Positions 1,178 to 4,757 are shown, counted from the stretch's first letter. The stretch: DNA of 17,896 nucleotides from a virus (IMGVR_UViG_643348547_000004); one strand, 5' to 3'. Notes: generated from the letters alone by a model not told the origin. A program made the numbers and translations.

Positions 1178-1202
1178 TGAACCGCCCCGGGTTTCCTGGA
1201 GA
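1178..1202. repeat. IS terminal inverted repeat, orfB-proximal end
   Basis: Begins with TG and is a 22/25 inverted match to 4733-4757. Confidence 0.8.
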
Positions 1203-1219
1203 GTGTTTTATCTGTGAAC

Positions 1220-1692
1220 TCAGGCTGCCAGATCATCGTTTCCGATGGAAGCATAATAAGCTTTTTCTGCTTCTGCCGGAGGAGTATGGCCCAGCCTTTC
1301 CAGCAATCGTCGATTGTTATACCAGTCCACCCACGTGAGTGTGGCCAGTTCCACTTCTGCACGGTTTTTCCAGCTCTTACGGTGTATTACCTCCGCTTTG
1401 TAAAGACCATTGATGCTCTCCGCCATCGCGTTGTCATACGAGTCGCCTGTACTTCCTGTTGATGCCAGTAATCCGGCTTCCTTAAGCCGCTGTGTGTAGG
1501 CCAGCGATACATACTGAGAACCTTTATCACTGTGATGGACCGTGCCGGACGGTCGACGGGCCCATAACGCCTGCTCCAGTGCATCCAGCACGAATGTCGT
1601 TTCCATGGACGATGAGACCCGCCACCCCACGATGTATCCGGCAAACACATCAATGATGAACGCCACATAGACGAAGCCCCGCCATGTGCTGA
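1220..1692 (-). CDS. IS3-family transposase OrfB, exon 2 (C-terminal part with the second Asp and the Glu of the DDE motif)
   Basis: ORF 1220..1666 (..[40 protein letters not shown]..) is the C-terminal DDE region. The frame is open upstream to 1692. Joining 3963 to 1692 gives TAC-G|TC-AGC = Y-V-S in frame and an 891-nt (296-aa) orfB. Confidence 0.8.
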
Positions 1693-1743
1693 GTAGAGTA
1701 AGAGGCAGGGCGTAGTCGGACTATTTCCCTGCCTCTCCTCCCC

Positions 1744-1777
1744 GAACCGGACGTGCACCTTTCAGCGCATCCGGCTC
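1744..1777 (-). ncRNA. Group II intron catalytic domain V (34 nt)
   Basis: Minus-strand 'GAGCCGGATGCGCTGAAAGGTGCACGTCCGGTTC' closely matches the domain V consensus (AGC triad, GAAA tetraloop, bulge) and lies immediately 3' of the RT stop codon. Confidence 0.8.
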
Positions 1778-1782
1778 TCCAT

Positions 1783-3306
1783 TTAAATGCTGGCGAACGC
1801 CATTGCCACTTCTGTAAAGCGCGATGTATACGTGTTTCTGGTCTCCGTCCTCAGATAGGGATTACCTTCGGGTAGCCGCCAGCGGAACAGCTTCTTGCCT
1901 TGCCCCACCAACCGGTACAGTATTTCGCCGCTGAGCTTGCCGTGATTGGTTTTACCAAATAAAACCCACGTTTTGCTCTGACCCGGTTTCGGTGATTTAC
2001 ACCACCACCTCATCAGGGAAGCGATACCTGTACGGTATTTGCGGGCCAGCCAGTGAGCCAGCTTCCAGAACACGACACGGTCGATATAACTGAAGACTTT
2101 GGCCTTAAAATCAACGAACTGATAGAACATGGCCCAGCCTTTCAGTTTTCGGTTGAGTTGTTCAGCCATATCGACTTTGCTTTCACTGTAGTTGCCTGAT
2201 AACAGTGCTGTCAGCGATGCGGCGAAGTTTCTGGCTTTCTCCTGCGGGATCGTTGAGACCACTCGCATCTCGCCATAACGACTGCGTTTGCGAATGATCC
2301 TGTGCCCCAGAAAGATAAAGCCGTCATTAACATGGGTGATTTTAGTCTTATCCATGTTCAGCCTGAGTTTCAGACTGCCTTCGAGCACACCCCGACACTC
2401 CTCCCTGATGGCTTCCGCCTGTGCTTTGGTGCCTTTGACGATGAGGACAAAATCATCGGCATAGCGGCAGTACGCCACCGCGGGTTTCCACTGCCAGTTT
2501 TCTCTGACCGCCGTACTTCGGCCCCGTTGGATACTGTTATTCCAGTACCACCGATCTTTTCTGGCTTTCCCGCTCAGGTAGCGCTCATGCAGGTATTGAT
2601 CGAACTCATTCAGCATGATGTTCGATAATAGCGGCGATATAACACCGCCCTGTGGCACACCTTCACTGGCCGCCCGAAAGAGACCGACATCGATATGTCC
2701 CGCCTTGATGGTTTTCCACAGCAGAGTCATGAAACGTGCGTCACTGATCCTGCGGCGTACAGCCTTCATCAGCAGTCGATGATGTACGGTGTCGAAGTAA
2801 CTGGACAGGTCGCCTTCAATCACCCAGCGTCCCCGGGTTTCACCGCAGTCTGTGAGCTGTAATTTCACCGTGCGGATCGCGTGGTGGACACTGCGCTCAG
2901 GCCGGAAGCCATATGAGAGCGTATGAAAATCACTCTCCCATATCGGCTCCATCGCCATCAGCATGGCCCGCTGAACAATACGATCCCGCAACGCGGGGAT
3001 ACCCAGTGGTCGCAGTTTGCCGTTGCTTTTAGGGATGTAAACCCGTCTGGCGGGCAAGGGCTGGTAGTGGCCTGAGAGTAATTCATCCCTGAGGATTTGC
3101 AGCTCAACAGCCAGTCTGGCCTGTAGCATTGTTTTGTTCACGCCATCAACGCCGGGGGTATGGGCCCCCTTTGATGAAAGCGTGATCCGCGCCGCTTCAG
3201 CCAGCCATTCTGGTTGTGTTATTAGACGCAGCAGCCGTTGAATCCGTAGGGACGGATCGGTGGCTGCCCATGTGGCAAGCTTGCGTTGCATTTCGCTGAT
3301 TATCAA
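1783..3306 (-). CDS. Group II intron-encoded reverse transcriptase/maturase (507 aa)
   Basis: RT motifs including the YADD box (..AYCRYADDFVLIV..) and a C-terminal maturase (X) region. No Cys/His-rich HNH endonuclease motifs are visible at the C-terminus. Confidence 0.9.
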   Translation of the reverse strand: MIISEMQRKLATWAATDPSLRIQRLLRLITQPEWLAEAARITLSSKGAHTPGVDGVNKTMLQARLAVELQILRDELLSGHYQPLPARRVYIPKSNGKLRPLGIPALRDRIVQRAMLMAMEPIWESDFHTLSYGFRPERSVHHAIRTVKLQLTDCGETRGRWVIEGDLSSYFDTVHHRLLMKAVRRRISDARFMTLLWKTIKAGHIDVGLFRAASEGVPQGGVISPLLSNIMLNEFDQYLHERYLSGKARKDRWYWNNSIQRGRSTAVRENWQWKPAVAYCRYADDFVLIVKGTKAQAEAIREECRGVLEGSLKLRLNMDKTKITHVNDGFIFLGHRIIRKRSRYGEMRVVSTIPQEKARNFAASLTALLSGNYSESKVDMAEQLNRKLKGWAMFYQFVDFKAKVFSYIDRVVFWKLAHWLARKYRTGIASLMRWWCKSPKPGQSKTWVLFGKTNHGKLSGEILYRLVGQGKKLFRWRLPEGNPYLRTETRNTYTSRFTEVAMAFASI

Positions 3307-3962
3307 AGGTCTTCACCTCGTTAGGTCAGTTAATTCACGTCGCAAACACATTCAAACTGCTTCCCTTCGCCATGTAATGGGCTTTCCCCATCGCGGACTA
3401 CTACGGAAGCTCCGCCAGCCAGCGCGTCATCGGAGCCATGCCCCCTTAACATCCGTCGCTGACCTTCCCCGGTTTACCTGCCTGGACTCAGGCATACTGA
3501 GGAGGCTGCCCGTCGCACTCTTTATCCTTGCTTGCCGCAAGTTGGCAGAAGTCAGCAACGCAAGCGTGATAGACGCTGCTGCCCCGGTGTTTCGCATACA
3601 TGTCAAAACACCTTCGACCGGCAGTGCTTACGTATCACTGCCAGTTCCTCCTGCACGGCCTGTCAGATCACGTAGGCCGTGGTGACGTTTTCAACCCACA
3701 GAGGCGGATTAACGGGTTCATGTTCTTCAGCCTTTCAGTACTTAACCTTGAGGATCATCTCGGCTTAGTGATCTCGCCTCAATCCCCGTTGTCAGCGGGT
3801 TACATCACCCTGCGGGCATGCCGCAGGTCACTGCCGCTCAGGTTCTCCACCGTCACACCCGGTGGGATTGTTGGGTTTCTCATCGTGAGTTACCGGTTCA
3901 ATATTCCAGACAGACTCGCGGTTCATTTAAGCATCCATGCCCGCCCTGAACTCCGGGCACAC

Positions 3963-4380
3963 CGTAAGTAAAATCAGCCACCCACAGCTGGTCAGGTCGT
4001 TCTGCCACGAACTGACGGTTTACGCGGTCGCCTGCGGCAACGGCTTTCCGGCTGATGGTCGTACGGACCTTTTTACCCCGGAGAACACCGGCAAGTCCCA
4101 TAACCGCCATGAGACGTGCCACAGTGCATCTGGCCACTCTGATACCTTCCCGTAACAACTGACGCCAGACTTTACGCACACCGTATACCTTGTGATTTTC
4201 ATCGTATACGCGCTGTATCTCTTTCTTCAGCCAGTCATCGCGCTGCGCACGGGCACTGCGTTTATCCGGATGATGTCGCTGTTGCTGACAGTGGTAATAC
4301 GTTGACGGGGCAATATGCAGTTCGCTGCATAGCGGTCCGACCCCGTACTGCTCACGCAGCTTATCCAGCAGTGGCATCAT
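3963..4380 (-). CDS. IS3-family transposase OrfB, exon 1 (N-terminal part through the first catalytic Asp in ..LWVADFTY)
   Basis: ORF 3898..4380 matches IS629 OrfB up to residue ~139 (..VADFTY), then reads into unrelated sequence that begins with 'GTGTG' on the minus strand. Confidence 0.8.
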
Positions 4381-4703
4381 TTTTTCCAGAGGCGGTCGAA
4401 CTCCGCCTTCGCAAAATAAGCGGAAGCCTGGCGAAGGATATCGTTACTGCGGCGCAGTTCACGATTTTCACGTTCCAGCTCTTTCAGACGCTGACGTTCA
4501 GCGGTGGTGAGCCCTCCATCACCGCCCCCGGTATCCCGCTCATGCTGGCGAACCCAGACACGCAGAGTCTCCGGCGTACAGCCAATCTTTGGAGCAATGG
4601 AACAAATTGTCGCCCATTGTGAGTCATATTCGCTCTGACTTTCCAGAACCATACGGACTGCCCGTTGACGGACTTCGGGGGAAAAACGAGTATTTTTAGT
4701 CAT
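4377..4703 (-). CDS. IS3-family transposase OrfA (108 aa, HTH DNA-binding subunit)
   Basis: ORF 4377..4703 ([19 protein letters not shown]...) with the leucine-zipper-like C-terminus typical of IS3 OrfA. Its end overlaps the orfB start through an A-run ('GGAAAAAATGATG' on the minus strand), consistent with the -1 frameshift window of IS3-family elements. Confidence 0.85.
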
Positions 4704-4732
4704 CCTGTTTACCTCTTTCTCAGGAAGTTTAG

Positions 4733-4757
4733 TCTCCAGGATTCCCGGGGCGGTTCA
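4733..4757. repeat. IS terminal inverted repeat, orfA-proximal end
   Basis: Reverse complement is a 22/25 match to 1178-1202. Confidence 0.8.

Follow-up and report, generated by a model that had tools for sequence, protein, structure and literature searches.

This locus raises the question of how a fragment of a phage integrase gene (int) and a fragment of a tail tape-measure gene came to lie on the two sides of one insertion sequence (IS), and why this IS is 3,580 bp long. The window, by which we mean the whole stretch of 17,896 nucleotides that was analysed, spans the left two-thirds of a lambdoid prophage, now decayed, in the mlrA (yehV) gene of Escherichia coli IAI39, a uropathogen of serotype O7:K1 and phylogroup F. 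Literature searches found no account of this IAI39 locus. Based on the observations described below, we suggest that, with high probability, the element is an IS629 positioned exactly at the joint of an internal prophage deletion of about 36 kb, that the IS itself made this deletion, and that its orfB gene is split by an intron.

Organization of the mlrA locus

The features of the window are listed in Table 1. The mlrA-integrating prophages are recognized by an attachment core and a cognate integrase beside the 3' part of mlrA, with a second core copy at the far end, and all of these were found in IAI39. The attL core, CACGCGCGTAACGTGACAGGG, is identical to the annotated attachment site of VT1-Sakai (L004 531-550). 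The second copy, attR, is located at 13234-13254 of the IAI39 locus L015 (window-equivalent 18122), just beyond the window end, and adjoins the first 22 codons of mlrA. In the mlrA part inside the window, the Pfam match to MerR_1 covers profile positions 26-68 of 69. The gene is annotated in AR_0013 at L005 19001-19687 and a gene call likewise exists in IAI39, and the PGAP annotation of relatives describes positions 1 to 687 as a 228-aa MlrA of which the first residues are phage-derived. An exact-protein search with this 228-aa MlrA returned a single short contig and was uninformative.

Table 1. Features of the window, with positions counted from its first nucleotide
Feature	Position	Strand	Basis
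mlrA (yehV) 3' part, prophage-disrupted	1..687	-	Pfam MlrA_C, MlrA_helical, partial MerR_1
attL core, mlrA-integrating lambdoid prophage	665..685		Identical to VT1-Sakai annotated attachment site
Integrase 3'-terminal fragment, tyrosine integrase	723..1177	-	Pfam Phage_integrase, profile positions 95-165 of 172
IS629 (1,310 bp) + group II intron E.c.I4 (2,270 bp), 3,580-bp composite	1178..4757	-	Terminal inverted repeats
IS629 orfB 3' exon, rest of DDE/rve core	1220..1692	-	Pfam rve, rve_3, rve_2
Group II intron E.c.I4, copy E.c.I4-12, 2,270 nt	1693..3962	-	Sense orientation in orfB; in-silico splice
Intron-encoded reverse transcriptase/maturase, 507 aa, intact	1783..3306	-	Pfam RVT_1, GIIM
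IS629 orfB 5' exon	3963..4380	-	Pfam HTH_21
Programmed -1 frameshift region + ALIL pseudoknot	4306..4422	-	Rfam RF01497
IS629 orfA	4377..4703	-	Pfam HTH_Tnp_1, E=7e-13
Tail tape-measure gene, 5'-truncated	4758..7669	+	Alignment to intact 3,267-nt AR_0013 gene from nt 356
Distal tail module + cargo, retained	7662..17896	+	IAI39 gene calls, Pfam families
DinI	17648..17896	-	IAI39 gene call

The integrase fragment comprises 455 of the 1,287 nt of the gene, encoding the C-terminal ~151 residues, and the breakpoint lies at int nt 832/833. It is 99.4% identical to the int of VT1-Sakai and 100% identical to those of AR_0013 and CE10. In the intact gene the sequence beyond 1177 reads GAATTGTCC..., and in IAI39 the open frame of the fragment crosses the junction and meets its stop codon within the IS, at 1233-1235. 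When the 136-aa int fragment was used in an exact-protein search, it matched IAI39 and a single metagenome scaffold of 1.2 kb, the latter without the IS. On the other side of the element, the tape-measure gene is devoid of its first 355 nt (breakpoint nt 355/356, with three bases, TCA, ambiguous at the joint), and the match to Pfam TMP_3 begins at profile position 60. Upstream, its frame continues without a stop into the IS as far as 4733; no start codon is present between 4733 and 4820, and the first ATG, at 4820, opens a 949-aa ORF that was exclusive to IAI39 in an exact-protein search. A reading made earlier from the sequence alone (the sequence-only reading) had described an integrase 3' fragment and a 5'-truncated tape-measure gene on the two sides of the IS, with both frames open to the IS repeats, and the 455-nt remnant, the start of the tape-measure alignment at nt 356 and the extent of both frames agree with it. 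The retained genes encode gpM, gpL, gpK, gpI, gpJ, Lom, a tail fibre, two small ORFs and DinI, and the tail region aligns collinearly with AR_0013 L001 20004-33141 at 99.2% identity.

Since int is truncated and xis is gone, the remnant is probably locked in mlrA and unable to excise, so that mlrA would stay split, though both att cores survive. Inactivation of mlrA by prophage insertion has been reported (PMC5635171). MlrA activates csgD and, through it, curli and biofilm, and the disruption of its gene at this locus would be permanent.

An IS629 element split by a group II intron

The element begins with TGAACCGCCCCGGG... at 1178 and ends with ...CCCGGGGCGGTTCA at 4757, forming imperfect inverted repeats with 5'-TG and CA-3' termini. 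A repeat search located the arms at 1175-1202 and 4733-4760 with 89% complementarity, and when the two IS termini were compared end to end, 23 of the first 25 nt matched. The composite is 99.7-100% identical to RefSeq copies annotated as 'IS3-like element IS629 family transposase' and 'ltrA' in many E. coli genomes, and its identity as IS629 is judged on such annotated genome copies and on IS copies of named strains. The Rfam model RF01497 was matched with a score of 120.2 bits against a gathering score of 50, and a slippery A6 run is located at about 4380-4385.

The excess of the 3,580-bp element over the 1,310 bp of a plain IS629 is due to a 2,270-bp group II intron located within orfB. When positions 1693-3962 were removed in silico, the IS became exactly 1,310 bp long, with orfA and the frameshift signal intact, and the 5' exon of orfB, which ends with ...GATTTTACTTACG, was joined in frame to the 3' exon; orfB is continuous only in this intron-free form. 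The designation 'IS629-like element' in the sequence-only reading is thus borne out by the IS629 repeats and the 1,310-bp core, but the element is not a plain IS, as it carries the E.c.I4 intron in orfB. Because orfB is split, this copy would make transposase only via spliced mRNA, or would depend on other copies.

The ends of the intron, 5' GTGTG and CTAC 3', fit the 5' GUGYG / 3' AY boundaries of group II introns. Domain V/VI was recognized at 1693-1779 by Rfam RF00029 (64.9 bits vs a gathering score of 40), and no Rfam model matched domains I-IV at E<=0.01 in a permissive search. The hexamer CGTAAG at intron nt 331-336 is a candidate EBS1, pairing exactly with positions -6 to -1 of the 5' exon; a clear EBS2 was sought in E.c.I4-12 and none was found. 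The intron-encoded protein matches RVT_1 (E=1.5e-34) and GIIM (E=1.3e-10), and no endonuclease domain was reported in it by Pfam. This intron is E.c.I4 in the Zimmerly nomenclature and has already been catalogued: the boundaries derived from the sequence are those of NC_011750 919953-922222, minus strand, where copy E.c.I4-12 is listed with 99% identity to the reference (PMC3522654 supplement S4). E.c.I4, a retrohoming intron, is reported to home into IS629-type/IS3-type transposase genes, with 15 copies of the intron and 27 empty sites in IAI39, and the host region of E.c.I4-12 is given as 'strain-specific prophage' (Leclercq & Cordaux 2012, PMC3522654). The intron may have ridden along with IS629, or may have homed into this copy afterwards.

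The flanks of the IS and the missing interval

A comparison of the sequences flanking the IS, CAGAT at 1173-1177 and GTCAG at 4758-4762, revealed no 3- or 4-bp direct repeat at its ends (GAT vs GTC). This test for a target-site duplication (TSD) is valid because two simple insertions of the same IS family both show 3-bp duplications, namely the same composite in gpJ of GCA_900448115.1 (GTC/GTC) and IS1203/IS629 in int of O157:H7 Z852 (GTT/GTT). The statement of the sequence-only reading that no TSD is present therefore stands beside positive controls, and a missing TSD is what is expected for a copy at a deletion joint.

We then consider the intact mlrA prophage of AR_0013, which is 100% identical over window positions 1-1177. 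Both flanks of the IS are collinear and in the same orientation in AR_0013, and this original order and orientation fits a simple deletion. The missing interval, from the 5' part of int to the 5' end of the tape-measure gene, amounts to 36,124 bp on AR_0013 (NZ_CP032204 4828684-4864807), which is a relative and not the ancestor, so that the segment actually deleted in IAI39 may have been of another length and gene content. Compared with AR_0013, the 5' two-thirds of int, xis, the immunity and replication regions, Q and the lysis genes were lost, together with all head genes, the proximal tail genes and the first 355 nt of the tape-measure gene. The IS-associated deletion from int through the head genes that had been read from the sequence alone is thereby mapped; the 36-kb segment is missing at the mlrA locus, and it may be lost altogether or relocated within the IAI39 chromosome.

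Since the flanks are unrelated 3-mers and each of them ends precisely at an IS terminus, we suggest that the IS produced the deletion rather than inserted later. CE10 carries an IS-free truncated form of this prophage, with the tape-measure gene fused to the attR core. Such a form would be in line with an IS-independent deletion, illegitimate or Int-mediated, that came first and was followed by a chance insertion of IS629 or IS629::E.c.I4 at the joint. However, a 3-bp duplication would be expected after a simple insertion, and both controls have one, while GAT and GTC are found here, and both phage sequences stop exactly at the IS termini. An order of events with the deletion first is thus exceedingly improbable.

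The joint was also searched for elsewhere. The left junction was not found, the closest insertions being those in 2013C-4830 and 2012C-4227 at +15 bp and in Z852 at -100 bp, and a search of 5,426 complete E. coli genomes for the right junction gave no match. Neither metagenome contigs nor species-representative genomes contained the exact junction strings, and the breakpoint pair of int nt 832/833 and tape-measure nt 355/356 occurred in no other genome among those searched. The fact that neither junction was seen in any independent assembly or metagenome contig searched would also be expected from an assembly artefact, in which two direct 3.58-kb IS629::E.c.I4 repeats, located in int and the tape-measure gene, were collapsed and 36 kb were dropped; moreover, the 3.6-kb composite repeat is longer than a Sanger read, and the intron is present 15 times in IAI39, which offers about 42 IS3-type homing sites. 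On the contrary, CU928164 is a finished single-contig chromosome, and a 36-kb unique segment would normally persist as an unplaced contig and be noticed at finishing. In addition, the same prophage is independently truncated in close relatives and in other lineages, indicating that decay at this locus is common. We consider such a collapse very unlikely.

Possible routes of the deletion

Recombination between two IS629 copies is, as we infer, the most likely route. The int and tape-measure genes would each have received an IS629 copy in the same orientation, the second copy perhaps arriving by a local hop. Homologous recombination between the two copies would have excised the intervening DNA and left a single IS, with each parent contributing one of its flanks. 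Almost as plausible is a transposase-dependent aberrant strand transfer, that is, an IEE-type 'adjacent deletion'. Here, a single IS629 at one of the two sites would have deleted the interval without a second copy, by a one-ended or 'sloppy' strand transfer possibly helped by the IS-excision enhancer IEE, and we give this single-copy route a substantial chance, if somewhat short of an even one. It has been known that IS629 is responsible for many genomic deletions, and the IEE- or transposase-dependent deletions documented beside IS629 range from a few nt to >40 kb (PMC9943667; bioRxiv 10.1101/2023.06.07.543989). An IS in int with an inward deletion of variable length also recurs in 2013C-4830 and 2012C-4227; in the former, an IS without a TSD is located 15 bp away in int and abuts the nin region. 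Furthermore, the many intact IS629-type copies in IAI39 could provide transposase in trans. Against the single-copy route, the IS3 family normally uses a copy-out-paste-in pathway via a circle, which by itself does not delete flanking DNA, and the high copy number of IS629 in IAI39, with two copies in another single prophage, would make two-copy recombination easy.

No progenitor with IS629 and a TSD at either site was detected when complete E. coli genomes (5,426), species-representative genomes, metagenome contigs and the exact-protein index were searched. A chimeric-IS footprint was considered as a recombination test and was rejected: AR_0013 and OZ546943 contain, at other loci, copies that match the whole composite at 100% identity, and this identity to copies elsewhere in related strains means that it bears no chimeric signature proving two-copy recombination. 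The sequence-only reading had proposed either an adjacent deletion or recombination between two IS copies; an IS-mediated deletion is upheld, but inter-IS recombination and aberrant transposase/IEE-type adjacent deletion cannot be separated on these data.

When insertions in int were surveyed with a query that spanned only about 300 bp of the gene, which biases detection to that stretch, independent IS629-family insertions in the same orientation and within 115 bp of int were counted in four lineages (O157:H7 Z852, the STEC strains 2013C-4830 and 2012C-4227, and O7:K1 IAI39). The int 3' third of mlrA prophages might be a preferred, orientation-specific landing zone for the IS629 family, although we regard this as doubtful. 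If it were true, IS629 would repeatedly 'ground' mlrA prophages and then erode them inward, and an intron-bearing copy might still delete DNA via splicing-dependent transposase expression.

Comparison with known systems

All components of this locus and the type of event are already documented, and IS-associated truncation is a routine, ordinary kind of prophage decay. The locus adds one more precisely mapped case of IS elements dismantling prophages and fixing them in place, with three levels of nesting: an intron in an IS, the IS in a prophage, and the prophage in a host gene. It also calls for caution in annotation, since a '3.6-kb IS' should prompt a check for a nested element.

The IS shares its terminal repeats, orfA/orfB layout, -1 frameshift, ALIL pseudoknot and intron-free length of 1,310 bp with IS629/IS1203 (IS3 family, IS3 group), and its identity amounts to 99.0% with the IS of 2013C-4830 and to 96.3% with an IS1203 copy of O157:H7 Z852. 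The intron shows no difference from the catalogued E.c.I4, which likewise is 2,270 nt long, has an RT/maturase ORF and is inserted at a specific site of an IS3-like transposase gene, whereas the E.c.I4 table (PMC3522654) makes no mention that the host IS marks a prophage deletion joint.

Among the lambdoid prophages of mlrA/yehV, VT1-Sakai/Sp15, CP-933V, YYZ-2008 and BP-4795 share the att core with the IAI39 remnant, whose int fragment has 98-99.4% identity to theirs. Truncated prophages occupy yehV/mlrA in stx1-negative O157:H7, according to the account of Shaikh & Tarr 2003 given in PMC8309913, and the outcome, a non-excisable prophage in mlrA, would be the same for the remnant described here. 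The sequence-only reading had pointed to O157 truncated prophages at this site; they do appear in that account, but the source here is IAI39 and not an O157 lineage. Unlike these mlrA/yehV prophages, the present one belongs to another lineage, contains no stx in the window and retains only the distal tail module.

With regard to the mechanism, the locus resembles other IS629-associated deletions, in which the IS is found at a deletion joint without a TSD; for E. coli O157, the deletion-generating behaviour of IS629 is attributed in PMC9943667 to Ooka et al. 2009 and Kusumoto et al. 2011. The host here, on the contrary, is an O7:K1 uropathogen of phylogroup F and not EHEC. Another comparison is offered by the IS150-mediated rbs deletions of the E. 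coli long-term evolution experiment, which Cooper et al. are said to have described in 2001; these reportedly have one fixed flank and a variable far end, and the IS3-family element is reportedly kept at the joint without a TSD. They differ from the present case in that they arose in a laboratory system, affect a chromosomal operon and involve an IS without an intron.

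Composition of the element at the breakpoint

By exact protein matches, the window is part of the finished chromosome of E. coli IAI39 (CU928164.2 / NC_011750; record position = window position + 918,260). This strain is a phylogroup F uropathogen, and the attribution to O157 lineages made in the sequence-only reading is wrong. At window 665-685 lies a 21-nt att core that matches the attachment site annotated in phage VT1-Sakai exactly, and the attR core, located 226 bp past the window end, adjoins the first 22 codons of mlrA, followed by btsS. Since a start codon is supplied from the phage side just past the att core, pipelines annotate the 3' part of mlrA as a 228-aa "MlrA", which lacks the first part of the MerR helix-turn-helix (matching Pfam profile positions 26-68 of 69); in annotation, the disrupted gene may pass for an intact one.

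Imperfect inverted repeats (TGAACCGCCCCGGGTTTCCTGGAGA... from 1178 and ...TCTCCAGGATTCCCGGGGCGGTTCA up to 4757) bound a stretch of 3,580 bp containing the genes of IS629 and the parts of a group II intron. On the minus strand, the sequence around 3962 at the 5' intron boundary is ...GATTTTACTTACG / GTGTGCCCGG, and that around 1693 at the 3' boundary is ...CTCTTACTCTAC / TCAGCACATGG (slashes mark the boundaries). When we removed 3962 to 1693 in silico (2,270 nt, GTGTG...CTAC), exactly 1,310 bp were left and orfB was continuous again. The "IS629-like element" is thus an IS629 copy whose transposase gene carries a group II intron in sense orientation.

Features of the mlrA fragment and of the IS629-intron composite in the window
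Feature	Position	Strand	Domains or match
mlrA 3' part	1-687	minus	MlrA_C, MlrA_helical, partial MerR HTH
orfB 3' part	1220-1666	minus	rve, rve_3, rve_2
Group II intron domain V/VI	1693-1779		RF00029, 64.9 bits (gathering score 40)
507-aa ORF between the two orfB parts	1783-3306	minus	reverse transcriptase, group II maturase
orfB 5' part	3898-4380	minus	HTH_21
A6 run and ALIL frameshift pseudoknot	4306-4422	minus	RF01497 (Rfam), 120 bits
IS629 orfA	4377-4703	minus	HTH_Tnp_1

The group II intron E.c.I4 homes into specific positions in the IS3-like transposase genes of IS629, IS911, ISEc16, and ISEc31, and IAI39 contains 15 copies and 27 unoccupied sites (Leclercq & Cordaux 2012, PMC3522654). In the supplementary table of that study, copy E.c.I4-12 is assigned to a "strain-specific prophage" and to the minus strand of NC_011750, 919953-922222. 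The coordinates that we derived independently from the window are exactly the same, and thus this intron was already catalogued. The composite of IS629 and intron is common at many loci in many E. coli genomes, where copies are 99.7-100% identical and are annotated as an IS629-family transposase plus ltrA. In the composite of GCA_900448115.1 (locus L012), the intron is almost identical to that of the window while the IS629 exons differ by 2-4%, which fits homing of E.c.I4 into different IS629 variants.

Structure of the joint and the missing interval

The left flank, 723-1177, comprises the final 455 nt of an integrase gene that is 1,287 nt long when complete. It shares 99.4% identity with int of VT1-Sakai and 100% with int of strains AR_0013, CE10, and N32 and of OZ546943. 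Intact int reads on as GAATTGTCC... at the point where the window has the IS end. The right flank, 4758-7669, aligns from nt 356 on with the tape-measure gene of AR_0013, which is intact at 3,267 nt; three bases (TCA) at this joint are common to the IS end and the phage sequence by chance. Both phage sequences thus end at the IS termini, confirming that the IS lies between an int fragment and a tape-measure fragment. The frames are also open up to the IS, as had been read from the sequence: the int frame crosses the junction to a stop at 1233-1235, and the tape-measure frame is open back to 4733, its first start codon being the ATG at 4820. Intact from the tape measure to the window end are gpM, L, K, I, J, lom, the tail-fibre gene, two small ORFs, and dinI. 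Between gpI and gpJ, about 340 bp (10034-10376) have no called gene; this gap is conserved, with equal spacing, in related prophages (loci L010-L015).

AR_0013 (NZ_CP032204) has an apparently full-length prophage at mlrA, with the order int, xis, ea22-like genes, LexA-family repressor, Rha regulators, replication genes, Q, phage porin, two tRNAs, nanS-type esterase, holin/lysozyme/Rz, terminase, capsid, portal, connectors, major tail protein, chaperones, tape measure, distal tail genes, lom, fibre, dinI, attR, and btsS. Window 1177 and 4758 correspond to its record positions 4,864,808 and 4,828,683, and the two flanks agree with the window in order and orientation. The IS therefore stands in place of 36,124 bp, as estimated on a relative rather than an ancestor. 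The missing interval runs from int through the head genes, as the sequence-only reading had proposed.

Comparison of the tail region with AR_0013 gave 104 differences, 76 of which fall in two patches, 9000-9999 (gpK/gpI) and 12500-12999 (gpJ); outside them, the 13-kb region is nearly identical. Such clustering resembles the outcome of mosaic exchange with other lambdoid prophages. The gpI gene call is 226 aa long in IAI39 and 193 aa long in relatives.

In the O7:K1 relative CE10 (NC_017646, locus L003), whose mlrA-int sequence is identical, this prophage is missing its opposite half. The tape-measure gene breaks off after 885 nt and runs straight into the attR core (...ATTGATAA / CGTGACAGGG..., L003 around 20527-20540, window around 5287), with a 3-nt TAA overlap and no IS. 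The position inside the att core suggests an aberrant Int-mediated or a microhomology-mediated deletion.

Origin of the deletion

The IS is bordered by the triplets GAT (left) and GTC (right), with no 3- or 4-bp repeat, in agreement with the sequence-only reading. This test is meaningful since simple insertions of the same IS family do carry duplications. In GCA_900448115.1 (UFZI01000001.1, 4872-8451), gpJ of the same prophage is split by this 3,580-bp composite, which there has the opposite orientation and is flanked by GTC/GTC. In O157:H7 Z852, int of the mlrA prophage contains an IS1203/IS629 copy between GTT and GTT, and neither half of int is missing. Taken together, the IS exactly at the joint, the phage sequences ending at its termini, the lack of a duplication, and the collinear flanks indicate that the IS generated the deletion, and rule out a chance insertion into a pre-existing joint. 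The earlier interpretation as an IS-generated prophage deletion is thus essentially right, but it was incomplete, having missed the intron revealed by RF00029, the maturase ORF, and the in-silico splice.

We favour a route in which an IS629 copy in int and a second one in direct orientation in the tape-measure gene would have recombined with loss of the DNA between them. IAI39 offers about 42 IS3-type homing sites, one other prophage of this strain holds two intron-bearing copies, and identity over 1.3-3.6 kb is ample for RecA to act on. However, no progenitor allele was found in complete E. coli genomes, an exact-protein index, metagenome contigs, or species-representative genomes, and comparison of the composite with other copies revealed no chimeric IS signature. 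Almost as plausible is an aberrant transposase-dependent strand transfer of the IEE-promoted kind. With IS629, this process gives adjacent deletions as short as a few nt and as long as over 40 kb (PMC9943667; bioRxiv 10.1101/2023.06.07.543989), and the recurrent pattern in STEC of an IS in int with an inward deletion fits. The same picture would result if the assembly had collapsed two identical 3.6-kb repeats, but this is very improbable because the chromosome is finished as a single contig and relatives show similar prophage decay.

Consequences and comparison with other prophages

Relative to AR_0013, the remnant has no xis and none of the replication, lysis, or head genes, and the int fragment lacks the N-terminus, its match being confined to the end of the catalytic domain (Pfam profile positions 95-165 of 172). 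Based on this gene content, the remnant, which measures about 17.5 kb between attL and attR with the 3.6-kb composite counted in, would be unable to excise or to form particles, and mlrA would remain split. In O157:H7, prophage insertion is reported to inactivate mlrA, a csgD activator (PMC5635171).

A 115-bp stretch of int contains three independent IS629/IS1203 insertion positions with a common orientation (20077, 20177, and 20192 in L005, the AR_0013 mlrA/int locus; window around 1077-1192; loci L009 and L002). They span four genomes of unrelated lineages: O157:H7 Z852, IAI39, and STEC 2013C-4830 and 2012C-4227. This stretch may be an IS insertion hotspot, with detection biased because the query covered this part of int only.

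The complete genomes searched by BLAST, a set evidently without IAI39, held no record covering its int/IS and IS/tape-measure junctions, and no published description of this breakpoint pair was found in the literature searched; the pair appears private to IAI39. In 2013C-4830 and 2012C-4227, an IS629-type copy located 15 bp further into int has no duplication (CGG and AAC) and is joined to the nin region; this deletion is smaller, independent of that in IAI39, and of like design. All components of the IAI39 remnant belong to known families, and the event is of a well-documented kind.
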